Of a stretch of DNA of 40,000 bases, positions 20,713 through 32,062 are shown piece by piece; position 1 is the first letter of the stretch, and each line of letters opens with the position of its first letter. Where the stretch lies: positions 123,030 to 163,029 of the forward strand of contig CAWGWZ010000004.1 in the NCBI GenBank assembly GCA_963826305.1, given 5' to 3'. The stretch comes from an uncultured delta proteobacterium (GTDB taxonomy: Bacteria > Desulfobacterota > BSN033 > UBA1163). Made by a program: the position numbers and the translations under genes. The notes beneath the pieces are model-generated. The model worked only from the letters and a program-made list of their open reading frames with translations, was not told where the DNA came from and ran no database searches.

Positions 20713-22872
20713 TTATTCATCGAGATAAGGCTGGATTTCGATGAAGTTGAATATCAATTCCTGTCCCACAGGGCCGCCTGACTCTTCGTCATTCCTCCAA
20801 TCTTTCACTGTTAGTCTTGCAGTTGTGCTCTTTGCACGAAATACACGCCAATGGTATTTCATCCAATATGGGTATTTTTGATTGAATTTACCAAGAGCAT
20901 GTGCATAGTTGTTTGGAAAGGTGAATTGAAACGCTTTTTTCTGTCCGGACAATAAGTCCGCATTGTCGAGATGGATCGACAAAGCGTGATCAGCCTTGAC
21001 AGATCTCTCCTGCACCAAATCTTGATAATCCCCTGTGATCATCTTCAAGGAATAGACTTGGCCAGGTGTGAGGTCTTTTATCTCCTGGCTAAACATATTT
21101 GGTTTTTTCGCACTACGCTTCATCCAAAGGAAAGTATCTCCATCATTGGTACGCGGATATCGTCCCTGGAGCCAACTATAGCCGTTGTAAGTGAGTGGTT
21201 TTGCACTCTCTTCCTCAGCAGGCAAGACAGTCCACGCATTTTCCCCCACGGCAAAATCTGGATTCTCGATGTGTGTCAGCTTATAAGGATCTTTGGCTAA
21301 TGGCTCAGTATTACCTTCGATACAATAGTGGCGATACAGACGACCTATCCACCTAATCGTCTCCTCGTCACAGTATGAGCTATGATATTCCTGGATTCCG
21401 CCGAGCCCAAAGAAGGCCGGATGGGTTGCTAAAAAGCGAAACTGCATGTCCATATACACTTTGAAATTAACGGTCGGGTCGGTATTAAGACTTTCGGTAG
21501 GTTGAGACATACATCCCAAGGCTATGACCATCCGACGCGTCGAGCCTGGAAGGTTATTTTCCCATCGACCCATCTCTTTCAGGAGACTTAGCTTGATGAA
21601 TGCCATAGCCTTTTCTTCTGTGGGCTGTTCAGTGAGATATCGTTCTCGGACTATATACCCTCCCTTTTCAATACAGGCCTTTAGGAATTCCGTAGATCGG
21701 TCTCCCCCGTTAAATGGACCCCCATAATAAGGCATAAAAGACTTTCCTTTGAATTTTGAATTGGAGTAAATCCGCTCCACCGCCTCTCGATAGAGGTCAT
21801 AGACTGTATCGTCTCCGCCTATAAATTCGTCAACGATGATGCCGTCCATGAGTGGATGTCGAAGACCGATGTAATTTGACCAGTACTTGTAGACTTCATC
21901 TGCAGCTGCCACACCGGTTTTCGTGAGTTTCGGCAAATAGGCGATCGACATCCATTTCTTCCCCCCATTTTTCCACTCTTTCAAATGCGGCGGCTCCGAC
22001 CCTTCGCTAATCATTACGTTCACATTGGGCAATATATCTTTGGACAAAAATTTCCAGTCATAAGGCCCGTAAGGGTGTATATGGGGATGCAGGTCATAAA
22101 AAGCATACTGTAGCATCGGAATAGACCGGACAATAAGATTCTTAAGGAAAGCTTTGCCCTTCCGTCCAACAAAGATGGTGTGTTTACCAGCAGGTAGAAA
22201 TCGCATAGCTTCGAGAGAAGGCTCGGTGCTATCTGAATGGACGATTACCGCTTCCTCCCTTGAATTTGAGTCTACCGAAACCCAGACTTCGCCGCCTTTC
22301 GTAATTTCAACTTCGGTTTTAACGTATACCCACCTATCGTAGGGATTATTGAAGACATACCTGTTGCGTATGCTTAAGGCCGCATTTTCCTGAACATTGA
22401 GCAGCTCCCAGACGAAGTTGTTCAAGATTTTAACGCCTTTGAAAATCTCCGGTTGGCCTTTCCAGAAAAAAGTTGATGTGGCTTCCTCACCAATAACCGT
22501 GCCTTCCGATCCTATTACATTGACATGAACAGCATACTCTCCCGCTGGAAGAGTTTTCATATCAAATTCAACATCTGTCTCGTTAGATACATCTGAAATA
22601 ATTTTCTGAATAATTGGCTTATTAGATTCGGAGAGCAATAGGTCTGCTCGAACCTTGCTTCCTAAGGGCATTGATTGTATTAGACGATTATCTATGGTTA
22701 GTGTAATCTTTCCTGGATCAGGATAAGTATGTATCTCCAGACTACCGGAATACTTAATACCAGCTTTTGGGCTCACAAAAGCACATGACAAAAACAAGGA
22801 GAAAATGATTAACTGAAGCCCCACACTTAGAATCACAAAAACCCCCTGGGGAACGTTGTTCAATTCTTTCAC
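20713..22872 (-). CDS. Exported 719-aa protein of unknown function (possible polysaccharide-active enzyme with a C-terminal beta-sandwich/CBM-like domain)
   Basis: Long intact ORF with an N-terminal hydrophobic signal-like segment (VFVILSVGLQLIIFSLFLSCAFV). The C-terminal NPDFAVGENAWTV..LTVKDW..ELIFNFIEI looks like a jelly-roll module. No catalytic family recognised. The first ~10 codons (GTG start) are built from a Box B repeat, so the true start may be GTG 22836. Confidence 0.7.
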   Translation of the reverse strand: MKELNNVPQGVFVILSVGLQLIIFSLFLSCAFVSPKAGIKYSGSLEIHTYPDPGKITLTIDNRLIQSMPLGSKVRADLLLSESNKPIIQKIISDVSNETDVEFDMKTLPAGEYAVHVNVIGSEGTVIGEEATSTFFWKGQPEIFKGVKILNNFVWELLNVQENAALSIRNRYVFNNPYDRWVYVKTEVEITKGGEVWVSVDSNSREEAVIVHSDSTEPSLEAMRFLPAGKHTIFVGRKGKAFLKNLIVRSIPMLQYAFYDLHPHIHPYGPYDWKFLSKDILPNVNVMISEGSEPPHLKEWKNGGKKWMSIAYLPKLTKTGVAAADEVYKYWSNYIGLRHPLMDGIIVDEFIGGDDTVYDLYREAVERIYSNSKFKGKSFMPYYGGPFNGGDRSTEFLKACIEKGGYIVRERYLTEQPTEEKAMAFIKLSLLKEMGRWENNLPGSTRRMVIALGCMSQPTESLNTDPTVNFKVYMDMQFRFLATHPAFFGLGGIQEYHSSYCDEETIRWIGRLYRHYCIEGNTEPLAKDPYKLTHIENPDFAVGENAWTVLPAEEESAKPLTYNGYSWLQGRYPRTNDGDTFLWMKRSAKKPNMFSQEIKDLTPGQVYSLKMITGDYQDLVQERSVKADHALSIHLDNADLLSGQKKAFQFTFPNNYAHALGKFNQKYPYWMKYHWRVFRAKSTTARLTVKDWRNDEESGGPVGQELIFNFIEIQPYLDE

Positions 22873-22877
22873 TTTTT
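22846..22877. repeat. Box B copy (overlaps the annotated start of the 719-aa ORF)
   Basis: Plus strand CTGGGGAACGTTGTTCAATTCTTTCACTTTTT. Gene-sense consensus is about GAAAAGTGAAnGAnTnnAACAACGTCCCCnnGG. Confidence 0.8.
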
Positions 22878-22926
22878 TTATTCAGTGGAGATCATAGAGA
22901 AGTCATTCGCCGCAAGACGCGAAGGA

Positions 22927-22975
22927 GGCTCCGGGGTCAAACCTTCAAAATTCAATTTCAATCGTTGGCAGCGTT
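22927..22975. repeat. Box A copy 1
   Basis: GGCTCCGGGGTCAAACCTTCAAAATTCAATTTCAATCGTTGGCAGCGTT, about 55 nt upstream (gene sense) of the 719-aa ORF. Confidence 0.9.
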
Positions 22976-23104
22976 CAGATCCTTAGGATCGTTGATACCG
23001 TTGGAAGAAGCTGAAAGCACAAAGCAGCTTAGTCAATGAGTCATTCAGTTATTAGGTCATTGGGTCAACTATAAGCTCAAAGTTCAAAGCTGAATGCTCA
23101 AAGG
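22976..23104. repeat. Composite short-tandem-repeat block (9-mers ..CGTT, 8-mers GTCATTGR, 7-mers AGCTSAA)
   Basis: ..cagatccttaggatcgttgataccgttggaagaagctgaaagc..agtcaatgagtcattcag..ggtcattgggtcaac..agctcaaagttcaaagctgaatgctcaaagg. Confidence 0.85.
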
Positions 23105-23187
23105 TGGAAGCGTACATGCGTTGAAGCGTTAACATGTCTATAGATCGTAGTGTCATAAGGTATATTGGGTCTATTGCATGGTAAGGC

Positions 23188-23454
23188 TTATTTATAAACA
23201 TCCCCTCTGAAGTCTATTCTTTCAACAGATATTACTCTTTCATTCTTATTCACCTCAAATATTATCCTTAACTTTCCTTTCCTCAGCCTGTAATAGCCTT
23301 CCCAATCTCCTACAAGTTTCTTTAAATCAATATTAACACTGCCCCCTTTCATTTTCATTAAAAACTTCTTTAATTCTTCTCTTACCTCGACGTGAACATC
23401 TTGCCTATCAATAAATTTTTCAGCGTCCCTGGAGTATTCAATTCTCCATTTCAT
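23188..23454 (-). CDS. RelE/ParE-superfamily type II toxin
   Basis: 88 aa: MKWRIEYSRDAEKFIDRQD..LVGDWEGYYRLRKGKLRIIFEVNKNERVISVERIDFRGDVYK. This is the typical RelE/ParE fold pattern. 4-nt overlap with the upstream small gene. Confidence 0.85.
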   Translation of the reverse strand: MKWRIEYSRDAEKFIDRQDVHVEVREELKKFLMKMKGGSVNIDLKKLVGDWEGYYRLRKGKLRIIFEVNKNERVISVERIDFRGDVYK

Positions 23455-23651
23455 ACTTCTACGGTCTCGCTATAAGCTGCTTCTTCTCCTGTCGATGGTT
23501 TACCATATAGCTTCTCAATATCCTCCATCTCCTCCTTAGAAATCGAAGGTATACTTCTCAGAAAGAATTCCAATGTTTCCTCCTCCAAGACTTCCCTTAC
23601 AGCTTTTTTTATAAGACCGTAAAGTTCATTTTTATCAATGATTACTTCCAC
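23451..23651 (-). CDS. Putative antitoxin of the RelE/ParE-like toxin (GTG start)
   Basis: 66-aa acidic ORF directly upstream of and overlapping the toxin, with AGGAG 6-8 nt upstream of the GTG. Assigned by position only. Confidence 0.6.
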   Translation of the reverse strand: MEVIIDKNELYGLIKKAVREVLEEETLEFFLRSIPSISKEEMEDIEKLYGKPSTGEEAAYSETVEV

Positions 23652-23682
23652 TTCTTTTCTCCTTTCGACTATTCATGTAGCT

Positions 23683-23691
23683 ATTATAACA
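23683..23691 (-). promoter_or_regulatory. Extended -10 candidate (TGTTATAAT) for the RelE/ParE cassette
   Basis: Gene sense TGTTATAAT, about 30 nt upstream of GTG 23651 and about 28 nt downstream of Box A copy 2. No good -35. Confidence 0.35.
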
Positions 23692-23718
23692 CAAGTCAAA
23701 ATAAAGATATAGACTAGA

Positions 23719-23765
23719 GACTCCGGGGTCACCTTCAAAATTCAATTTCAATCGTTGGCAGCGTT
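23719..23765. repeat. Box A copy 2
   Basis: GACTCCGGGGTCACCTTCAAAATTCAATTTCAATCGTTGGCAGCGTT, between the vapC stop and the RelE-cassette start. Confidence 0.9.
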
Positions 23766-23800
23766 TGGATCCTTCGCATAGAAGGGAGCTTCGCTGGAAT

Positions 23801-23850
23801 GTCATTGGTTTGTTTGGTTTTCCTGGTTTCTTTGGTTTGTTTAGTTTCTT
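23801..23850. repeat. Nonamer array (NNNNNNGTT family)
   Basis: gtcattggtt tgtttggtt ttcctggtt tctttggtt tgtttagtt. Confidence 0.85.
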
Positions 23851-23878
23851 TTATTAAATGGCGTCAGACAAGACACTT

Positions 23879-24313
23879 TCAACGACTTAATCCGAAATCA
23901 GCCAGTAATCGAATGGAAGGTTTCTGTTTAGTGCTCTTTTTAATTCTTCTATAAAATCTCTTATCTGCTGTTATAAACTCAAAACTTAATTCTTCGGCCA
24001 GCGCAAGATAAGTAGCGTCATAACAGGTTAAATCAAATTCTTTTGCGAATTCAACAGTTTTACCTAACAAAGTAACGGTTGGAGTAATGATTTCTATCCC
24101 CATACCAAATAGCGTGTCCAATGCTTCCTGAATTTCCTCTATCGAAAAACTCGCGTTGTAACGTAAGGCATTTGCAATTTCAAAGAGCAAGAGATCAGGA
24201 ACAACAATCTCTCTTTCTCCAGCATAGAACTCTTCGCGAAGTTTGAGTGCTCGACCGCTGTCCGCTTCATTTACAAACCATTTCAAAACCACGGATGCGT
24301 CTAAAACACTCAT
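23879..24313 (-). CDS. vapC: PIN-domain ribonuclease toxin VapC
   Basis: MSVLDASVVLKWF (first acidic D), ..PDLLLFEIANAL.., ..CYDATYLALAEE.., ..ITADKRF. These are the PIN acidic residues. The track ORF starts at 24355, but Met 24313 gives the classic ATGA overlap with the antitoxin stop. Confidence 0.9.
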   Translation of the reverse strand: MSVLDASVVLKWFVNEADSGRALKLREEFYAGEREIVVPDLLLFEIANALRYNASFSIEEIQEALDTLFGMGIEIITPTVTLLGKTVEFAKEFDLTCYDATYLALAEELSFEFITADKRFYRRIKKSTKQKPSIRLLADFGLSR

Positions 24314-24507
24314 CGAGCCTCTCTCCATTTCCTGATCGTGGAGACACTGTCCCAACCCTTTGGAACGGGATGATTCTCTCTGATCTTATCCTGTGTCTCT
24401 ATGGCAACCTTAATCTTGTCTTTATCCCGTAACCTTGCCCCTATGAGATAACTTATTCGTTTCTCAACAAGGCTCACTTTATCATAGTTATCAATAATCT
24501 TATCCAT
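24310..24507 (-). CDS. VapB-type antitoxin (small, C-terminal ..IRKWREAR)
   Basis: 65-aa ORF overlapping vapC by 4 nt. Assigned by position and size. Confidence 0.65.
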   Translation of the reverse strand: MDKIIDNYDKVSLVEKRISYLIGARLRDKDKIKVAIETQDKIRENHPVPKGWDSVSTIRKWREAR

Positions 24508-24572
24508 TTCTTACCCCCCCCGCTCTTTACCTGGACTTCACCATAACTGCCTTTGGACTAGTTTCTTTTGTT

Positions 24573-24601
24573 ATTTTATCATTTCAGATATTCACTAGCA
24601 A
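24573..24601 (-). promoter_or_regulatory. Sigma70-like promoter candidate for the vapBC cassette
   Basis: Gene sense TTGCTA-N17-TAAAAT (-35 at 24601-24596, -10 at 24578-24573), about 65 nt upstream of ATG 24507 and downstream of Box A copy 3. Confidence 0.45.
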
Positions 24602-24639
24602 CGGAATTATTAAACCAGTTTCGTGCGTTTTTGTTCAGA

Positions 24640-24686
24640 GGCTCCGGGGTCACCTTCAAAATTCAATTTCAATCGTTGGCAGCGTT
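24640..24686. repeat. Box A copy 3
   Basis: GGCTCCGGGGTCACCTTCAAAATTCAATTTCAATCGTTGGCAGCGTT, between the hicA stop and the vapB start. Confidence 0.9.
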
Positions 24687-24775
24687 CAGATCGGTAATAC
24701 CGTTGGAAGAAGCTGAAAGCTCAAAGCTGAAAGCGTTGATCGTAAAGAACGTTTGGATCGTTAACAACCTCTATA
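24687..24775. repeat. Composite 9-mer/7-mer block
   Basis: cagatcggtaataccgttggaagaagctgaaagctcaaagctgaaagcgttgatcgtaaagaacgtttggatcgttaac. Confidence 0.85.
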
Positions 24776-24788
24776 AGCTCGGCTTTGT

Positions 24789-25030
24789 CTACAATTTTCT
24801 CAGGATCTTGACAAACTCCACCTTTGTCAGTCCCATTTGCTCAATGATAGAGAGCAAAGTGCCTCTCGGAATTTCATCTCTATGAGGAATAATGACAAGG
24901 TGGGTCTTCTCCTCCGTCTTCTTTACAAACGCGGAATGGCTTCCCTTGCCCCCTTCGGAGCAGGTTCAAAACCCAAATATCTCAGGATTTTTATGACCTT
25001 TTTTGAAGAAAGTATAGGAAGTTTCGGCAT
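24789..25030 (-). pseudogene. hicA: HicA-family toxin, frameshifted (1 nt short in the G-run near 24943-24945)
   Basis: Hand translation from ATG 25030 gives MPKLPILSSKKVIKILRYLGFEPAPKGAREAIPRL*. Shifting one base restores ..GARGSHSAFVKKTEEKTHLVIIPHRDEIPRGTLLSIIEQMGLTKVEFVKILRKL* (GSH motif), ending at 24789. Confidence 0.75.
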
Positions 25031-25269
25031 TAAAGGACCAGTTCAAAGCTACCAGTAAACTTCTCCCTCACTGTAAGGCTCTCTTCTATGTCTTCCATTA
25101 AGTCCAGTTCTTTGGCGTTCTCAATATAAAGTTCTACTGCCTCTTTGAGATTGGCCACGGCTTCTTCAAATGTATCTCCACAACTGGCCACACCCAACTC
25201 AGGGCATTTAGATACAAAACCCCTTCTTTCTTTCCAGACAACTGCCGTATACTCAAGAATTTTCATCAT
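25030..25269 (-). CDS. hicB: HicB-family antitoxin (UPF0150-like)
   Basis: 79 aa: YTAVVWKERRGFVSKCPELGVASCGDTFEEAVANLKEAVELYIE. Its stop overlaps the hicA ATG by 1 nt. Confidence 0.85.
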   Translation of the reverse strand: MMKILEYTAVVWKERRGFVSKCPELGVASCGDTFEEAVANLKEAVELYIENAKELDLMEDIEESLTVREKFTGSFELVL

Positions 25270-25383
25270 TCACTCCTCTCTTCTCGTCTATAATTCTGCC
25301 AAACTCGTCCGCTTTTAACAAGCCTATCACTGCATCTGCCCATGGGCACGTCGCTGCGAAGCTGGCCCCAGTGCAATATCTAT

Positions 25384-25415
25384 CCGAGGGGACGTTGTTC
25401 ACTCCTTCACTTTTC
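25384..25415. repeat. Box B copy
   Basis: CCGAGGGGACGTTGTTCACTCCTTCACTTTTC, upstream (gene sense) of hicB 25269. Confidence 0.8.
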
Positions 25416-25589
25416 TTCTTTCCGTTGAGAGCGTTGGCCATAAGCTCGAAGCTGAAAGCTCAAAGGTGAGACTTCAAACCCTTTCAAAATCGTTTTGATC
25501 TATACCTCATTGCTTTAGCATTCCCCTAATCGTCCCTTGTTTAAGATCCTTGTTTCCTTAGTCAGGAATTACACTCCCTCTTCCTGTCA

Positions 25590-25622
25590 CTGAGGGGACG
25601 TTGCTTACTTCGTTCACTTTTC
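25590..25622. repeat. Box B copy
   Basis: CTGAGGGGACGTTGCTTACTTCGTTCACTTTTC, in the gene-less junction 25441-25715. Confidence 0.8.
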
Positions 25623-25715
25623 TGATTCCGTTTGGATCGTTGGGATCGTTAAGGACGTTTGGAGCGTAAATACTTAATGTGTTATAGCATGGATCATGGA
25701 AATATCAATATCATC

Positions 25716-25940
25716 TTAGGCATAGGCGAGTCTACCTTTTGGCTGTGGTATTTCTCTTCCCAAACTCAGTGCAGTATCTATCCACTCCGAAATAACAACT
25801 TCCGCATTTTTTATTGCTTCCTCATAGGTCAGTCCATCAGCCATACATCCAGGGAGCTCAGGAACTTCAATGATATACCGACCGTCTTCTTCGCTCCAAA
25901 AAATAATGAGTTCATACTTGTACATTTTAAACTCCTTCAT
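25716..25940 (-). CDS. hicB: HicB-family antitoxin
   Basis: YKYELIIFWSEEDGRYIIEVPELPGCMADGLTYEEAIKNAEVVISEWI. The likely true start is ATG 25925, 1 nt after the hicA stop. Confidence 0.85.
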   Translation of the reverse strand: MKEFKMYKYELIIFWSEEDGRYIIEVPELPGCMADGLTYEEAIKNAEVVISEWIDTALSLGREIPQPKGRLAYA

Positions 25941-26178
25941 GCAGCTTGTATTTAAAGATGATTACTCTAACCTGCTTGACCTGATAAGCTTTTGCTTTTC
26001 CGTCTTTAAGTGGTTGCAAGTTAATAATTTCTTCAATTCCCTCTCGGTAGTGGATATGATGGTCTCCCTTCATTCTTACAGAAAACCCAAAATCGTTCAA
26101 GAGCTTTGTGAGATCTTGAAACCGGATATTTTTATCAGCCAACCCACTAAGAACTCTATTTAACGTTTTCTTATCCAT
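25927..26178 (-). CDS. hicA: HicA-family toxin
   Basis: 83 aa: ..IRFQDLTKLLNDFGFSVRMKGDHHIHYREG..INLQPLKDGKAKAYQVKQV. YcfA/HicA-like pattern, immediately upstream of a hicB. Confidence 0.8.
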   Translation of the reverse strand: MDKKTLNRVLSGLADKNIRFQDLTKLLNDFGFSVRMKGDHHIHYREGIEEIINLQPLKDGKAKAYQVKQVRVIIFKYKLHEGV

Positions 26179-26202
26179 TATTTAATCCAGAAGAAAATAG
26201 AT

Positions 26203-26236
26203 CCAAGGGGACGTTGATGAAAATTGTGACTTTTCC
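26203..26236. repeat. Box B copy
   Basis: CCAAGGGGACGTTGATGAAAATTGTGACTTTTCC, just upstream (gene sense) of hicA 26178. Confidence 0.75.
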
Positions 26237-26277
26237 AAAAGGACCCAAACAGCGGGTCACTAAACCATAACGGGACG

Positions 26278-26311
26278 CCATGGGGAACGTTGTTGAAAAA
26301 TGACACTTTCC
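26278..26311. repeat. Box B copy
   Basis: CCATGGGGAACGTTGTTGAAAAATGACACTTTCC, in tandem with the 26203 copy. Confidence 0.75.
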
Positions 26312-26315
26312 ATCT

Positions 26316-26518
26316 TGGCTTATTGGGTTGATCTGGTTTATTTGGTTTATCTGGTTTAGAGCGTTGAGATCGTTGAGAACATTGGCCATGAGGTGAAAGC
26401 GAAAAGCATCAGAGCGTTGATGCGTAGGAGCGTAAATGCGATAAAACCCTTGATCGTTCGGATCATTGAGATTGTTGAGATCCTTGAGTTCGTTGAAAAC
26501 GTTTTGAACGTTTGGGAT
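26316..26518. repeat. Long degenerate nonamer array (..GTT every 9 nt)
   Basis: tattgggtt gatctggtt tatttggtt tatctggtt tagagcgtt gagatcgtt gagaacatt ... gatcgttcggatcattgagattgttgagatccttgagttcgttgaaaacgttttgaacgtttggg. It generates the spurious ORF 26171..26530 (..LNDLNALNQINQINQIN..). Confidence 0.9.
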
Positions 26519-26567
26519 GAAAATGACCATTCCCTCAAAACCTGAGGGTATAGCGCCTACCGAAAGA

Positions 26568-26798
26568 TTAAAGTCTTTCCCATTCCTCCAAGGGAATCTT
26601 CTTTTTCAGTCCGAGTTCAATTTCCTTGAGAAGCATTTTAATCTGTGGAATGGAATATTCGGTATTATGGGGCAGGGTCAGTGTAAATGTTCCGTAACGC
26701 ATGTAAAAGTGACGCCCGCCAGGTTCGGGTGAACTAAACCCGAGTTTCTTCAATTTCTTTATAAGATCTCTCCGCTTGCATGGTGCCCATCTACCCAT
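26568..26798 (-). CDS. hicA: HicA-family toxin
   Basis: 76 aa: KRRDLIKKLKKLGFSSPEPGGRHFYMRYGTFTLTLPHNTEYSIPQIKMLLKEI. 8-nt overlap with the upstream hicB-like gene. Confidence 0.85.
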   Translation of the reverse strand: MGRWAPCKRRDLIKKLKKLGFSSPEPGGRHFYMRYGTFTLTLPHNTEYSIPQIKMLLKEIELGLKKKIPLEEWERL

Positions 26799-27054
26799 GA
26801 ACGGTTGCCTCAGCGGGAGTAGGCATTTTCTTATTCAGATTGATTCCACCTATGACAGGCAATTTATCCCCATGTCTTATCTTCACAATCAGCCATCCTT
26901 CAAGTACCGACCTTAATTCTTCCTGACACTGATAAAGTGTTTCTCCAAATCCGATAACGCCAGGACATTGGGGAATGTTTCCAGAATAAGTACCATCCTC
27001 TAATTTTTCATACTCTGCTTTACTCATTGCCTTATCGATATATTCAAGAAGCAT
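26791..27054 (-). CDS. hicB: HicB-like antitoxin
   Basis: 87 aa: ..YSGNIPQCPGVIGFGETLYQCQEELRSVLEGWL. AAAGGAGG lies 8 nt upstream of the ATG. Confidence 0.8.
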   Translation of the reverse strand: MLLEYIDKAMSKAEYEKLEDGTYSGNIPQCPGVIGFGETLYQCQEELRSVLEGWLIVKIRHGDKLPVIGGINLNKKMPTPAEATVHG

Positions 27055-27103
27055 ATTGACGCCTCCTTTACCAAACCGTTGGAAGATTCCCCAACTTCAA
27101 TTT

Positions 27104-27112
27104 ATTATAACA
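27104..27112 (-). promoter_or_regulatory. Extended -10 candidate (TGTTATAAT) for the hicBA cassette
   Basis: An identical TGTTATAAT nonamer about 50 nt upstream of ATG 27054, downstream of Box A copy 4 and Box B. Confidence 0.35.
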
Positions 27113-27144
27113 CCTCTCCTCCACGAACCAAAACCCAAGCCGGC

Positions 27145-27178
27145 CCTGGAGGGAGGTAGTTGAATCCTTTCGCTTTTC
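27145..27178. repeat. Box B copy (diverged)
   Basis: CCTGGAGGGAGGTAGTTGAATCCTTTCGCTTTTC, between Box A copy 4 and the hicB promoter-like TGTTATAAT. Confidence 0.6.
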
Positions 27179-27258
27179 TCTTTCCGTTCGGCCCGTTGGG
27201 AACGTTTAGATCGTTAATCTCATTTATTTCGTTGATTTCGTCTACCTCGTCTATCATA
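27179..27258. repeat. Nonamer array
   Basis: tttccgttcggcccgttgggaacgtttagatcgttaatctcatttatttcgttgatttcgtctacctcgtc. It underlies the spurious ORF 27105..27299 (DEINEINEINDLN). Confidence 0.85.
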
Positions 27259-27264
27259 TTCGGA

Positions 27265-27313
27265 GGCTCCGGGGTTAAACCTTCAAAATTCAATTTCAAT
27301 CGTTGGCAGCGTT
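27265..27313. repeat. Box A copy 4
   Basis: GGCTCCGGGGTTAAACCTTCAAAATTCAATTTCAATCGTTGGCAGCGTT, between the DUF5615 stop and the hicB start. Confidence 0.9.
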
Positions 27314-27413
27314 TGGATCGCTAATACCGTTGGAAGAAACTGAAAGCATAAAGCTGAAAGCTCAAAGTGGATTAATAAAGAATGGTTGCTTAGCTCAGAC
27401 ACCTGAGTACAAC

Positions 27414-27767
27414 TTATTTCCAGGTACTCAAATATTCAAGCCGATTTTTCATGTCATGGGAAGTCAGAGAGAAGTATAACCTCATCAGTCTACGCAAAAC
27501 TATTCCTACTGGCAATTGGTCTGAGAGAATGATCCCTCCATGAAATCTTTCTGCGCTCATCCATCCATGATGAATCCGAGCAAAGTGTCGCTTATTATAT
27601 GAGAACAATGATCGTCTGGCTTCGGCTGCAAACATAAGCTGACCGGAATCCGTAAGACCTATATTCCCGGCTTCTTGGGTTGTGAGAACATCAACCCCTC
27701 TTGCTCTTAACGCTTCGGCAAGCGCTAATTGAATATCTTCGTCGAGGTAGAGAGAAATGTTAGCCAA
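27414..27767 (-). CDS. DUF5615-family PIN-like putative toxin
   Basis: 117 aa: ISLYLDEDIQLALAEALRARGVDVLTTQEAG..SDQ. Directly abuts the DUF433 gene with no gap, the usual DUF433/DUF5615 pairing. Confidence 0.8.
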   Translation of the reverse strand: MANISLYLDEDIQLALAEALRARGVDVLTTQEAGNIGLTDSGQLMFAAEARRSLFSYNKRHFARIHHGWMSAERFHGGIILSDQLPVGIVLRRLMRLYFSLTSHDMKNRLEYLSTWK

Positions 27768-28064
27768 TCAGTATCTTCCACCCGGAAAATTCTTTGATAC
27801 AGCCTCTTCTCTATCTCTTTCAAGCTCCCGGTCTATGACTTCTTTATGATCGAAATAATAAGCCAGCGCATCAAAAATCTGCGCCAGACTGAGGTGAGGA
27901 AGTTCCCTCCGAATTTCCTCCGCCGTCAACCCCATAAGATAATACCCAGCTATATTGCCAACCGAAACTCTGGTCCCCTTAATGACCGGACTACCTCCAC
28001 AAATTTCCTTGTTCACCGCTATATGAAAATGATCGGTCGTCTTTCGGCCCAAAGCTCCCTTCAT
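27768..28064 (-). CDS. DUF433-domain protein (putative antitoxin partner)
   Basis: 98 aa: ..EICGGSPVIKGTRVSVGNIAGYYLMGLTAEEIRRELPHLSLAQIFDALAYY, the characteristic DUF433 core. Confidence 0.85.
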   Translation of the reverse strand: MKGALGRKTTDHFHIAVNKEICGGSPVIKGTRVSVGNIAGYYLMGLTAEEIRRELPHLSLAQIFDALAYYFDHKEVIDRELERDREEAVSKNFPGGRY

Positions 28065-28152
28065 AGACCAACTCCTTCTTTCCTTATTTGAATTTTAGGA
28101 TACCATGGATAACCAAGTTAATCAAGTAATGCTCTAATAGTAAATTTCTCGG

Positions 28153-28239
28153 GTAGAGTAGAGAACTGGCGTAGTGGCTAACGCTCTATCTCCAGCTCCC
28201 CCTCGTCAAACCGTACGTTCAGTTTTCCCGAATACGGCT
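28153..28239 (-). ncRNA. Group II intron domains V and VI (ribozyme catalytic core and branch-site helix)
   Basis: On the minus strand, AAGCCGUAUUCGGGAAAACUGAACGUACGGUUU has the AGC triad, a 2-nt bulge and a GAAA-type loop. It is followed by GAGGGGGAGCUGG...CCAGUUCUCUACUCUAC, which forms a stem with a bulged A. Confidence 0.8.
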
Positions 28240-28245
28240 TTCCGA

Positions 28246-29574
28246 TCATCTTCGTACAGAGGCTTTCGCAGTCTGAGTCCATGGAGCAGTGGTTGGCACC
28301 TTGTAAAGATGCAGATTGTCGTAGAGGTACTGATTTGGATACTGACAATAGCCTCTGTTTTTCTTCGCCTGCTTCCGTCTCAGATAGATGCGGACTCTCT
28401 CTTCCAGAAACCGTTTGACCATGGACAGGTTCCGGCTACAGTTCCCATAGTAAAAGTAACCGACCCATCCCCTTACTGCCTCATTCAATTTCTGGATGAT
28501 CACCTCTTTAGGTAACCTAAGTGTTCTCCGACAGGTTAAAGCCTTTATCTCCGCCTGGATCTGCGCCATGGCTTTCTTTGAGGGCCTGATCAAAGGAAAC
28601 TTCTTCCCTGTCCTGGGACTCTTTGCCATTTCCACGGTGAATCCAAGGAAGTCAAACCGCTCCCTCCAGGTGTTCACCACTCTCGTCTTTTCCTCATTTA
28701 GGTTTAGTCCCAGTTTTCCCAATGTGGCTCCGGTCCCCTTCAAGATCCTCTCGGCGTTTCCGCGACACATCACCACGAAATCGTCTGCGTACCGAATCAG
28801 TCTGGCCTCCATCCTCTCCTCAACCTTCTTCGCCTTCCATAATTTGTCCAGTACGTTAAGATAGATGTTGGCCAGCAGCGGTGATATCACTCCTCCCTGC
28901 GGGGTCCCCCTTGGATTCCCTATGGCTCTACTCTTCCCATCCTCTCCCTCTTCGACCACTGGCGCCTTCAACCACCGCTTGATGAGCCGAAGGATATGCT
29001 TGTCCACGACCCGCTTGGCCACTAACGCCAGTAGCTTATCGTGAGGAATGGTATCAAAATATTTCGAGATGTCAGCATCGATTACCTGATTCTTCCCCAT
29101 GCGAAGCTGTAAGGTAAGGTCATCCATCGCCTGATGGGCATCCCGCTTCGGCCTAAACCCATAGGAATTGTCCTCAAAGTCCGCCTCAAAGATCGGTTCG
29201 ATGACGATCTTCACCGCCATCTGCACCACCCGATCCTTAATCGTCGGTATTCCCAAGGGCCTTCGGCTTCCATCCGACTTCGGAATGTTCACCCTCCTCA
29301 CAGGCATCGGCTTATACACCTTCCCCCTTAGTTCCTCTGCCATCTGTTCAAGGTATCTTTCCACTCCCCCTTGTCTCTTCTCTATGCCTTCAAAGCTCTC
29401 CCCGTCTACTCCCGGTGCTCCTTTGTTGGCTCTCACAAGGCGATAAGCGTGACTCAGGATGTCTCGCCGATATACCTTGTCATAGAGAAGATAGAACCGG
29501 TATTCCTTCTCTTGCTTGGCCTTCCGGTATAGTCTCCTCTGAAGTTCCCGAACCTTTTCTGGAGTTTCAAGCAT
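28246..29574 (-). CDS. Group II intron reverse transcriptase/maturase (no D/En domain)
   Basis: 442 aa with [65 protein letters not shown] (YADD), and maturase X region [11 protein letters not shown]. Confidence 0.95.
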
Positions 29575-30087
29575 CCCGCAATCTCCTGGCCCTCCCCTCT
29601 TCAGAAACTGATGAAAGTATTGCCCCTTCCCTCTCCTAAGGTTCTGCTCTCCTTAGGATTCAAACGGTACTCCGGGCAACTCCGACTCCCTCACAGACCG
29701 AGTGAAATTTCGTCTCCTTATATCCACCCGTTGCTCTCCTGTATAGCATCTGAAAGGGCCTCCCGTGCTATCCCACATGACTTCCCCTGCGTGTCACCCC
29801 TGCTACCCCGGAAGTCCATCTGTCGGTTCTGGCAGTTTTCGTTAGGACAGATGTCCCAGCCTTCCCCAAACGTCCAAAGGGTCGGCAACTTCGTTCTCAA
29901 TTACGAGGCTACCTATAGGTTCGCTTGCGCTGCAACCCGCAGGATTGCTCAACTCACTCATTGAGCCTTCGTCAGGGAACTCAATGCTTCGGGTTACCCC
30001 TAACATCTCCCTCCAGCTACATGGGCGAACTGCCCAATTCCCATGGCCGGACTTTAACCGGCAAGTCATGCGTTGTACACGGCATAC

Positions 30088-30112
30088 GGACGGGGTTGAA
30101 TCTTTCCACTTG
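30088..30112. repeat. Box B copy, 5' portion, interrupted by the group II intron
   Basis: Gene sense AAGTGGAAAGATTCAACCCCGTCC|intron. After conceptual splicing to CCGAGAAA (28152 downward) the CGTCCCC core of Box B is restored. Confidence 0.65.
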
Positions 30113-30148
30113 TCTCGTTTATTTTGTCTATCACCCCTGTGAAAGGGA

Positions 30149-30262
30149 GAATGTCAAATGTGAAATGTTGAGAGCGTTGAGCTCGTTAATACCGTTGAGA
30201 CCGTTGAGTTCGTTGGGATCGTTGATTGAGTTTGTTGCATTGATAGCGTTCATCGTGTATAT
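30149..30262. repeat. Heptamer (AATGTNA) then nonamer array, flanking the intron 5' exon
   Basis: gaatgtcaaatgtgaaatgttg agagcgtt gagctcgtt aataccgtt gagaccgtt gagttcgtt gggatcgtt gattgagtt tgttgcatt gatagcgtt. It underlies the spurious ORF 30131..30334. Confidence 0.9.
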
Positions 30263-30370
30263 GCGAAAATGCGTCCAAGCGTCGCTGAGTCGATGATCCA
30301 CTGCGGAATGCAGAATGCGTAACAAAACACTCAAAAAGATGGGATAAATAATCTGGCAACATTCAAGAGG

Positions 30371-30637
30371 TTATACCTTGTAAACATTATCATGATGATC
30401 AAAATCAAGCAGCGTCACTATTTTTCTTTCTACATCGATCTCGTAAACTAAAACAAGGGAACCACTAATATGAACCCTGCGCTTATTTTGTAAGGGTTTT
30501 CTTAACGACTTAAATCGATAAGGATCTTCAAGAATATCTCCCACCTTTCTTTCAATTAACCGAAGCATCTCCTTGTCTTTCTTCTGGAGCTTCTTAAATT
30601 TCTTATCCAGTTTTTCTTTAATAGCAAGTCTATACAC
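30371..30637 (-). CDS. RelE/StbE-family type II toxin (mRNA interferase)
   Basis: 88 aa: ..ILEDPYRFKSLRKPLQNKRRVHISGSLVLVYEIDVERKIVTLLDFDHHDNVYK. 1-nt overlap with the upstream small gene. Confidence 0.85.
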   Translation of the reverse strand: MYRLAIKEKLDKKFKKLQKKDKEMLRLIERKVGDILEDPYRFKSLRKPLQNKRRVHISGSLVLVYEIDVERKIVTLLDFDHHDNVYKV

Positions 30638-30825
30638 TATTTTAAGCCGTATCTTTTGCCGAAGTCTTCAACCATGATTGATTTCTCGAGGTCAATATCT
30701 CGCATCCGTAAAATAAAATCATCGCGCAACTCAGGTTCCTCCATAAGACTTTTTTTGATCTCACCCACGTCCCGCTGCAAATCGACTACCTTTTTATAAA
30801 TGGTTTCCAAAGTAATGCTCTTCAT
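30637..30825 (-). CDS. Putative antitoxin of the RelE-like toxin
   Basis: 62-aa charged helical ORF directly upstream, with GGAGGATGA upstream of the ATG. Assigned by position only. Confidence 0.6.
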   Translation of the reverse strand: MKSITLETIYKKVVDLQRDVGEIKKSLMEEPELRDDFILRMRDIDLEKSIMVEDFGKRYGLK

Positions 30826-30947
30826 CGATTCATCCTCCTATACCCATTCCGTCAGTGTATCGAATATATCCTTTTTAGTGATCTCGGCCATCACTCGCCT
30901 CACTGTGTTGGGCTAATGTACCGCAACTCATCAGGTCTATCCAGTAC

Positions 30948-30980
30948 CTCACGGCACGTTGTTCGCTTCTCCCACTCTTC
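30948..30980. repeat. Box B copy (diverged)
   Basis: CTCACGGCACGTTGTTCGCTTCTCCCACTCTTC, upstream (gene sense) of the 30825 cassette. Confidence 0.55.
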
Positions 30981-31066
30981 TCCGGTTAGATCGTTAAGAT
31001 CGTTGAAACTCCTGGGGGACGGTGCAAATGAAAAATGTACAATGTGAAAGCGGGATAATATTTTGG

Positions 31067-31507
31067 CTATTTTAGGGGATTGATGGTTTCAAACCCTATA
31101 GCACTTACAACATCGCAAAGAATGTCATCGGAAGCTACAAATCTCCAGTCTCTTTCTGCAATCAAGCTAAACGTTCCTATTTGAATCGCATCAAGAGTCC
31201 TCAATCGTTTTGTTTTACCAAATCGCTGCAATAAATCTTCTGCCTCTCCAAGAATGGCGTGCCCCAGAGGTTCAACATTAAAAGAGCGAATCTGTTCTTC
31301 AAATCCAATCATGGCTTTTCGCAACTGTTCCTCATTGATTTCTTGATTCCTTAACCTTCGAAATAGGGTGCTGAGAAATTCAGTCTTAGAAAGTTCTGAA
31401 ATCCAAATTTGATTATCCTCTGAAAGGATGAGATCTGTAACCAGTGGAGATCCTTTTTCTTCATGGAAAAACTTTACAAGGGCTGATGTATCAAAAAATA
31501 GGATCAT
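31067..31507 (-). CDS. vapC: PIN-domain toxin VapC
   Basis: MILFFDTSALVKFF.., ..ISELSKTEFLS.., ..LRTLDAIQIG.., ..VASDDIL. These are the PIN acidic residues. ATGA overlap with the upstream gene. Confidence 0.9.
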   Translation of the reverse strand: MILFFDTSALVKFFHEEKGSPLVTDLILSEDNQIWISELSKTEFLSTLFRRLRNQEINEEQLRKAMIGFEEQIRSFNVEPLGHAILGEAEDLLQRFGKTKRLRTLDAIQIGTFSLIAERDWRFVASDDILCDVVSAIGFETINPLK

Positions 31508-31725
31508 CCTCGGTCCTCTCTAAGAGAGAGAATGTCTTCACTCAACGATCCTTTACATGATTTCAATGCCTCCCGCACTCTGACATAGGGTGGAGTTATT
31601 TCTCCTTTTGTTTTTTTATCCAAATCCCGTTTCAAGGAGAGGATGAGGTCATATACTTTTAAAAGATCATCGGGTTTTAATCCTTCCAGTTCTTTTATGG
31701 TCTTATCTTTCATTTTCATATTCAA
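31504..31725 (-). CDS. Putative VapB-type antitoxin
   Basis: 73-aa ORF overlapping vapC by 4 nt, with GGAGAG upstream of the ATG. Assigned by position. Confidence 0.6.
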   Translation of the reverse strand: MNMKMKDKTIKELEGLKPDDLLKVYDLILSLKRDLDKKTKGEITPPYVRVREALKSCKGSLSEDILSLREDRG

Positions 31726-31850
31726 CTCTCCTAAATTCGATTAGAGACGTACAAATATTCTATCCCATATCCTTAGAATATTGTCAAATTGGTCGGATTT
31801 GTTGCCTATGCTCGTCACACAGAGGACGCTGGCTCTAAAACAACTTGCCT

Positions 31851-32062
31851 CGTTTGAACCGTTAAGAGCGTTCAGGTCGTTTGGAACAAGCTGAAAGTTC
31901 AAAGCTCAAGGCTCAAAGGGGATTAAGGAAATCTGGGAGACCTTGTTGAATTCTTTCGCTATTTTCTTCCTGTTAGAGCCGTTGAGTTCGTTCAGACCCC
32001 TAATACCGTTGGGATCGTTGAGAACGCTAACCGTTTAGGTCGTTCGGATCGGTGCTCGTTAA
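31851..32062. repeat. Composite 9-mer/7-mer blocks flanking a Box B copy
   Basis: cgtttgaaccgttaagagcgttcaggtcgtttggaacaagctgaaagttcaaagctcaaggctcaaagg ... gttagagccgttgagttcgttcagacccctaataccgttgggatcgttgagaacgctaaccgtttaggtcgttcggatcgg. Confidence 0.85.
31933..31966. repeat. Box B copy (diverged)
   Basis: CTGGGAGACCTTGTTGAATTCTTTCGCTATTTTC, between the fcl stop and the first TA cassette. Confidence 0.6.

Follow-up and report, generated by a model that had tools for sequence, protein, structure and literature searches.

Box B repeats at toxin-antitoxin gene junctions of an uncultured delta proteobacterium are probably solo ends of a small Y1/HUH transposon

The DNA analyzed here is a 40-kb window (C4:123030-163029) of a 6.5-Mb metagenome-assembled genome (MAG) from an uncultured delta proteobacterium, which is 91.6% complete and consists of 28 contigs; we refer to this genome as G000 and to its contigs by C-numbers. 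A preliminary description of the window had pointed out a short repeat, Box B, at the junctions between its genes. According to our analysis, the Box B copies are most likely lone, decaying terminal inverted repeats (TIRs) of a small Y1/HUH transposon of the TIRYT type, and hence debris of mobile DNA, a reading to which we give a probability of roughly 85-90%. The first 22.8 kb of the window are a glycan-synthesis cluster. From there to the end of the window all genes lie on the minus strand and are mostly small toxin-antitoxin (TA) pairs, with ParE, PIN, HicA/HicB-like and DUF433/DUF5615 families, separated by spacers crowded with 7-9-nt tandem arrays. An exact-protein look-up with HicA gave no match.

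Box B proved to be a real repeat, and all nine stretches assigned to it are found at their stated coordinates on the minus (gene) strand. In gene sense the motif spans about 29 nt (..AAAGTGAnnGAnTTCAnCAACGTCCCC). Its 9-nt core taken alone is not above chance (9 matches with up to one mismatch vs 6.1 expected); the motif of ~29 nt is, and de novo repeat finding clusters the copies as families D10-D12. A profile search across the genome, proposed earlier as a check, returned 32 copies (iterated nhmmer, E<0.05), of which six sit on full elements, 10 form five pairs and about 16 are solo. Seven of these 32 are in the 9-kb TA island; of about 19 solo ends that we count in the whole genome, eight or nine lie in this island, every one in the same orientation and 65-77% alike.

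The identity of the motif becomes apparent outside the window. Three 1.07-kb elements that are 98-99% identical to each other (C7:249862-250927, C8:211128-212192 and C26:109992-111056) have Box B at either end in inverted orientation and are bounded by inverted GGGGACGTTGATGAAA.. ends. At the sites outside the window the inner flank of the motif is identical, and the sequence past ..CCCC is unrelated at every site. The single open reading frame (ORF) of the element encodes a 328-aa Y1/HUH transposase, with HLH (HUH) and YIHLNP motifs read from the translation. This protein matches PF01797 (Y1_Tnp) with an E value of 4.8e-11, and it also resembles the NCBIfam model REP_Tyr_transpos for REP-associated tyrosine transposases (RAYTs; 2.5e-16, below the cut-off) and, over residues 254-320, Bac_DnaA_C (E 3.7e-4, 20.9 bits, below the gathering score of 31.5). 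The transposase genes in C7 and C8 are intact, and the one at C26:110013-110996 carries an in-frame TAG. Besides the full elements, we found five mini-derivatives of 155-190 nt, made of a left and a right end (LE+RE), each folding into a long hairpin (z -1.5 to -5.0). Single Box B copies showed no fold on either strand, with minimum-free-energy z-scores from -2.7 to +1.8 and mostly near 0, and no consistent target-site duplications were found at the ends of the Y1 elements. The genome contains about 10 further Y1 paralogs, nearly all flanked by their own GGGG(A/T)C.. inverted repeat. A group of 80-nt solos ('family 2') may have retained the 3' end of a Y1 gene, a match of 11/14 nt that is suggestive only.

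To compare the window copies with transposon ends independently of their mutual likeness, we used a profile made only from TIRs flanking Y1 transposase genes in other genomes, with zero window sequence. Its top eight matches in the 40-kb window (26207, 26283, 25388, 22849, 25594, 27151, 30088 and 31939) are eight of the nine claimed Box B copies, all on a common strand and in a common register. Five matches reached 9.5 bits or more, vs 0.02 expected per window from 200 dinucleotide shuffles, and seven reached 5.9 bits or more, vs 0.35 expected and a maximum of 2 in the same shuffles. Judged by this profile and its shuffle control, the window copies are evidently homologous to the Y1 TIR, beyond being similar to each other.

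The best copy, at 26203-26236 (21.3 bits, E 1.2e-5 with the foreign profile), matches the left end of the resident 1.07-kb element almost perfectly (18/18 in ATTTTCATCAACGTCCCC). The copy at 26278-26311 (17.2 bits, E 2.5e-4) follows in direct orientation 75 nt away, so that the tandem pair described earlier stands. The copies at 25384-25415 (9.8 bits) and 25590-25622 (9.5 bits) both have a nonamer array on the inner side. The one at 22846-22877 (9.7 bits, E 0.069; E 1.2e-4 with the genome profile) is identical at 24 of 29 positions to the right end of a Y1 element in the relative G019. Among the diverged copies are 27145-27178 (genome profile E 0.027; 6.9 bits with the foreign profile) and 30088-30112 (5.9 bits), the latter being the 5' part of a copy whose last 2 nt (CC) lie beyond an intron, at ~28153-28154. 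The earlier observation is confirmed, and seven of the nine copies are solid. The copy at 31933-31966 is clearly similar to that at 27145 and has an E value of 5.4e-3 with the genome profile, and is marginal with the foreign profile (4.0 bits); the strongly diverged one at 30948-30980 is weak, being recognized by similarity within the window only (foreign profile rank 15, E=33). By eye there is a possible tenth copy, with an indel, at ~31016-31050, which is not significant. The commonest subtype in the window is GTTGTTCAATTCTTTCAC.

Regarding other genomes, relatives of the Y1 protein were detected in 34 of the 41 related genomes. At no fewer than 13 loci in other genomes, including named Thermodesulfobacteriota MAGs, Y1 orthologs with 52-96% identity have GGGGACGT(T/A)G.. 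inverted repeats 1.07-1.10 kb apart. The terminal 15-mer TTCANCWACGTCCCC is present in 23 of the 41 related genomes, often in pairs spaced by ~1.05 kb or 0.1-0.3 kb, vs three matches altogether for a reversed control. The commonest window subtype is matched most closely by GGGGACGTTGTTGAATCCTTCTACTTTT, which stands at the right end of the element in genus g20 (L004). In one Thermodesulfobacteriota MAG (JASEHH010000035.1, L024), the terminal GGGGGACGTTG of the right Y1-element end occurs twice in tandem (GGGGGACGTTGTGGGGGACGTTGATGA), a lone instance of such duplication. The idea that the nonamer, heptamer and octamer arrays are amplified Y1 termini was unsupported; the genome has ~3,000 short tandem arrays (Tandem Repeats Finder) whose units are many and unrelated. 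Period 7 is the commonest among them, followed by 9 and 8. Such arrays are a habit of the whole genome, to which the nonamers, heptamers and octamers of the island belong.

The window carries a second kind of junction repeat, Box A (GGGGTCAAACCTTCAAAATT..), with a copy at 22933-22964 on the minus strand and further copies at ~23725-23754, ~24646-24675 and ~27271-27302, which all share the orientation of Box B. A Y1 paralog at C20:654811-655977 is flanked by GGGGnCAAACCTTCAAAATT inverted repeats that match Box A. Box A is the TIR of this different Y1 paralog, present in the window as solo copies. As first described, Box B lies downstream of Box A in gene sense, and this is true at both junctions carrying both boxes. 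A palindromic pair of Box A is found at ~688.5 kb of C20.

RAYT-like genes flanked by long TIRs, and not by repetitive extragenic palindromic (REP) sequences, were described as 'TIRtrons' or 'TIRYT' by Di Nocera et al. 2013 (PMC3733652). The TIRYT repeats share the sequence GGGGWSAS, and single, dimeric and grouped TIR copies are moderately abundant in some genomes (PMC3733652). Quentin et al. 2018 placed the TIRYTs in subclass 2.1 of TnpA-Y1, which is marked by C-terminal helix-turn-helix (HTH) domains (PMC6006769). Box B fits this known but little-studied class in several respects: a RAYT-like Y1/HUH gene of ~330 aa; flanking inverted repeats of 16-30 nt starting with GGGG(A/T)(C/G); single, paired and grouped repeats scattered in moderate numbers, mostly downstream of genes; and several paralogs per genome, each with its own TIR. 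A C-terminal HTH, as in subclass 2.1, is suggested by the DnaA_C-like match below the gathering score. The RAYT group 1 that Bertels et al. 2017 defined is reportedly about equivalent to subclass 2.1. There are also differences. The Box B terminus departs from the published GGGGWSAS at positions 7-8, whereas Box A (GGGGTCAA) fits 7/8 and the ends of other Y1 paralogs (GGGGTCAG and GGGGACAC) fit 8/8. The genome has three near-identical copies of the cognate gene, which so behaves like an active insertion sequence (IS) and unlike a single domesticated gene, and the window has unusually dense, strictly co-oriented solo ends interleaved with TA cassettes.

Other repeat systems share some of these features. 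As in REP/REPIN-RAYT systems (Nunvar 2010; Bertels & Rainey 2011; Ton-Hoang 2012), short extragenic repeats are cognate to a Y1 transposase that they flank, inverted LE+RE mini pairs form hairpins as REPINs do, and the repeats are targeted by other mobile elements. Unlike REPs, a single Box B is not palindromic and folds into no stem-loop (z about 0), a GTAG tag beside a hairpin foot is missing, and the copy number is in the tens and not in the hundreds. Box B was rejected as a REP hairpin, since single copies are unfolded and the CGTC inside ACGTCCCC has no adjoining hairpin. The five LE+RE derivatives are internal deletions of an autonomous element, like IS-derived miniature inverted-repeat transposable elements, but they show no evident target-site duplication, their transposase is of the HUH/Y1 and not the DDE kind, and the window copies are single ends. 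Integron attC sites are likewise located at junctions of co-oriented small cassettes, often TA ones, and group II introns home into attC sites, as one sits here in Box B. In contrast to attC, Box B has neither the R''-L''/L'-R' imperfect palindrome nor a linked IntI, and the real attC of this genome looks different.

We then looked at the context of the repeats. Solo copies outside the window are also located 3' of co-oriented small TA-type genes, which are MNT/HepT, RelBE-like, HTH/HigA-like and ORF6N by eye from translated ORFs, and in two of the outside cases (C25:127162 and C28:661667) the next gene is convergent. Since Box B is found 3' of genes even before a convergent gene, it goes with the upstream cassette or the junction and not with a downstream promoter. 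A strain variant is provided by contig L023 (JGI 3300069122, 2507 nt), which is 96-97% identical to window positions 23084-27086. In L023 the HicBA cassette is joined directly to the ParDE-like cassette; in the window, no fewer than three additional cassettes separate the two. The bodies and promoters of the cassettes are conserved between both sequences and the junctions differ, that of L023 carrying Box-B-like and GACCCC-type ends of its own. Turnover of cassettes at these junctions is thus real.

Two other mobile elements are found at the ends of the repeats. A group II intron occupies 28155-30087 on the minus strand (Rfam RF02003 and RF00029; RVT_1 and GIIM), with a 442-aa reverse transcriptase/maturase ORF at 28246-29574. 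It splits the 30088 copy, as had been noticed, and we located the insertion between ..CCCGTCC and CC, 2 nt from the outer end of the repeat; joining of the exons restores ..TTCAACCCCGTCC/CC. Exon-binding site 1 (EBS1) of the intron, GGACG, is complementary to the intron-binding site 1 (IBS1) CGTCC at the end of the 5' exon. In a second intron copy, 81% identical and located at the contig start (C4:737-1131), EBS1 is CCTAC and the 5' exon ends in GTAGG. This covariation between the two copies sets the 5' splice site after ..CCCGTCC, and rules out an intron starting at GTGTA with an intact Box B upstream. The intron thus appears to home to the repeat terminus.

The other is an IS66-like element of 1.99 kb with GTAA..TTAC ends and an 8-bp target duplication, present in 15 copies that are ~100% identical (C7:247850-249838, C26:107980-109967, C6:59449-61440, C24:13538-15530 and 11 more); a truncated copy is found outside the window at C4:1-387. 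A ..G(G/A/T)CCCC motif always precedes the element, separated from it by 13 nt and the 8-bp duplication, and in 4 of the 15 cases the element adjoins the end of a Y1 transposon (three of Box B type and one of C23 type). These positions suggest targeting at a fixed distance from ..CCCC ends. Within the window, the spacer of the tandem Box B copies (26237-26277, minus strand, GTTATGGTTTAGTGACCCGCTGTTTGGGTCCTTTTGG) resembles an IS66-like end (GTAATAGTTTAGTCCTTTTGGAAC) with a 16-nt hairpin-like insert, a likeness that may be a relic or chance.

The Box B copy at 22846 overlaps the longest ORF at the end of the glycan cluster (719 aa), which starts at GTG 22872 inside the repeat. The preliminary description had left a choice between an annotation artefact and a repeat recruited as an N-terminus. 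The database call for this lipoprotein-like gene (P0002; 707 aa) starts at the 13th codon, GTG 22836, with the N-terminus MILSVGLQ.. and an SD-like (Shine-Dalgarno) AGGGGG 5 nt upstream, and 20713-22836 on the minus strand is its probable true extent. A search of 40 related genomes for the 719-aa protein gave no ortholog, and a large protein database gave an 87%-identical one, P0003 (contig L002). The N-terminus of P0003 (MKVGQISKLWVLCAVF..) is unrelated to KELNNVPQG, and the similarity runs from near ..LSCAFVSPK. At the nucleotide level, homology with L002 starts at ~22796-22810, ~40-50 nt past Box B, and in L002 the P0003 gene is directly preceded by an epimerase gene. Besides, the same frame is closed in the 25384 copy (GTG AAG GAG TGA), which argues that the open frame at 22846 is fortuitous. 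On the other side, the long form supplies the only lysine of the signal peptide. Between both options, the database call and the unrelated ortholog N-terminus favor the artefact over a recruited N-terminus, and GTG 22836 is probably the true start, with the GTG in Box B resulting from extension of the ORF. With either start, the 5' end of the gene is remodelled at this junction.

The sequence identity of Box B with the element ends, its conservation beside Y1 genes across genomes, and the classes and contexts of its copies are plain observations. From the biochemistry of IS200/IS605 TnpA (IS608) and E. coli TnpA(REP), we infer that the Y1 enzyme would recognize these ends and would cut and rejoin single-stranded DNA at or beside the ..ACGTCCCC terminus. 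The island copies are non-autonomous half-sites, devoid of an inverted partner or a hairpin. Having no partner and no hairpin and being only 65-77% alike, they are most likely old, inactive relics in hypervariable junctions between TA cassettes, and we consider it quite probable that the window copies are passive in this sense. As to how the solos arose with one orientation, Y1 insertion may be strand-specific, or only that orientation may be tolerated downstream of genes. Box B would not be needed for the expression of neighboring genes. The solos would attract other mobile DNA, by pairing of the group II intron with CGTCC and by insertion of the IS66-like element at a fixed distance from ..CCCC.

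One could argue against this reading on several grounds. Recognition and cleavage of TIRYT ends are reasoned by analogy with the enzymes above. The subtype GTTGTTCAATTCTTTCAC has no full-length cognate in the 91.6%-complete assembly, and its best match is in another genus (L004). The Box B terminus GGGGACGT fits only 6/8 positions of GGGGWSAS. There are 13 co-oriented half-sites (nine of Box B and four of Box A) in 9 kb without an inverted partner, which is unlike the simple decay of two-ended elements, and the breakpoints of the strain variant are 8-80 nt from the repeat ends and not at the ends.

With 13 unpaired, co-oriented half-sites, the repeats may also have taken an active part in the assembly of the array. 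Both boxes could be working junction sites of a cassette array driven by HUH/Y1 enzymes in Thermodesulfobacteriota, a single-strand-DNA analogue of the integron, in which the transposase, acting on one end only or site-specifically at the resident ..ACGTCCCC end, would introduce or exchange TA and other accessory cassettes. The co-orientation of all 13 at cassette junctions would be accounted for, and the genome has intact Y1 genes that could act in trans. Within ~40-50 nt of the 22846 copy, synteny is lost with the relative L002 (87% identical), where the epimerase gene replaces the island, and between the same pair of cassettes L023, with its own junction ends, lacks at least three that the window has. 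However, the strain breakpoints are inside microsatellite arrays or 8-80 nt away from the repeat ends and never exactly at ..CCCC, one cassette boundary in L023 has no nearby TIR, the copies are decayed, and one-ended activity is not known for Y1 enzymes. Moreover, the ~3,000 short tandem arrays could by themselves drive homologous or slipped recombination. We regard this active role as unlikely. Closer in form to a true integron, the island could be a cassette array or a cluster of attC sites lacking integrases (CALIN), with Box B as part of attC sites. The architecture of co-oriented small TA cassettes is integron-like, and two integron integrase genes of this genome score above the TIGR02249 cut-off (C24:69062-70000, 447 bits; C22:349022-349978, 406 bits, with one TGA), but both are on other contigs and none is on C4 near the island. 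A simple scan for R''/R' and a stem gave no attC in the island, relaxed settings included, whereas the same scan detects a classical attC by the C24 integrase (C24:67264-67353, GCCTAAC..GTTGGGC, 90 nt, -46 kcal/mol). As Box B has no inverted partner or hairpin and is the end of a Y1 element, unrelated to the attC sites of tyrosine recombinases, we find this highly improbable. Within 3-6 kb of the C22 integrase there are also an LE+RE mini-element of the Box B type and a copy of the IS66-like element.

The two remaining explanations would tie Box B to its immediate surroundings in the window. The preliminary description had allowed for Box B being just the decayed end of the ..AACG nonamer arrays, and indeed it ends in AACGTCCCC, which contains the AACG of the nonamer unit, and CGTT arrays of period 9 directly adjoin the inner side of five window copies. 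Nevertheless, self-identity at lag 9 is 0.37 for Box B vs 0.66 for the arrays, 27 of the 32 genome copies have no adjacent array (the five that abut one are all in the window), the foreign-TIR profile gives no array match above noise, and in this and other genomes the motif terminates a 1.07-kb transposon. Box B is hence distinct from the arrays, and the chance that it decayed from them is negligible. Likewise, a function as promoter, operator or 5' untranslated region of the downstream TA operons would agree with its location in the window, 25-180 nt upstream of start codons and in gene orientation, and with the SD-like AGGGGG provided by the 3' flank at 22846. But the distance to the starts varies, and separate sigma-70-like promoters are found between Box B and the genes (TTGACT-17-TATAAT for the ParDE-like cassette, and TGTTATAAT after 27145). 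A consensus scan gave no promoter in Box B, although this promoter and terminator scan is uninformative, with fewer matches than in shuffles; elsewhere Box B precedes convergent genes or forms transposon ends; and the strain variant keeps the cassette promoters and not the Box B-bearing junctions. A cis-regulatory role is therefore very doubtful.

Reading Box B and Box A as end-repeats of TIRYT-type Y1 transposons would remove the apparent mystery of a 'junction grammar' in this island, with no new regulatory or recombination signal, and it also corrects the likely start of a gene of the glycan cluster. For TIRYTs the genome would offer a well-populated example, conserved across a bacterial class, in which autonomous elements that are active and multi-copy occur together with mini-derivatives and solo ends. 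The combination of dense solo ends in one direction, strain-variable cassettes and two mobile elements that aim at the same terminus makes this locus suited to test the part of Y1 ends in the turnover of accessory genes, and to ask what TIRYT enzymes do.

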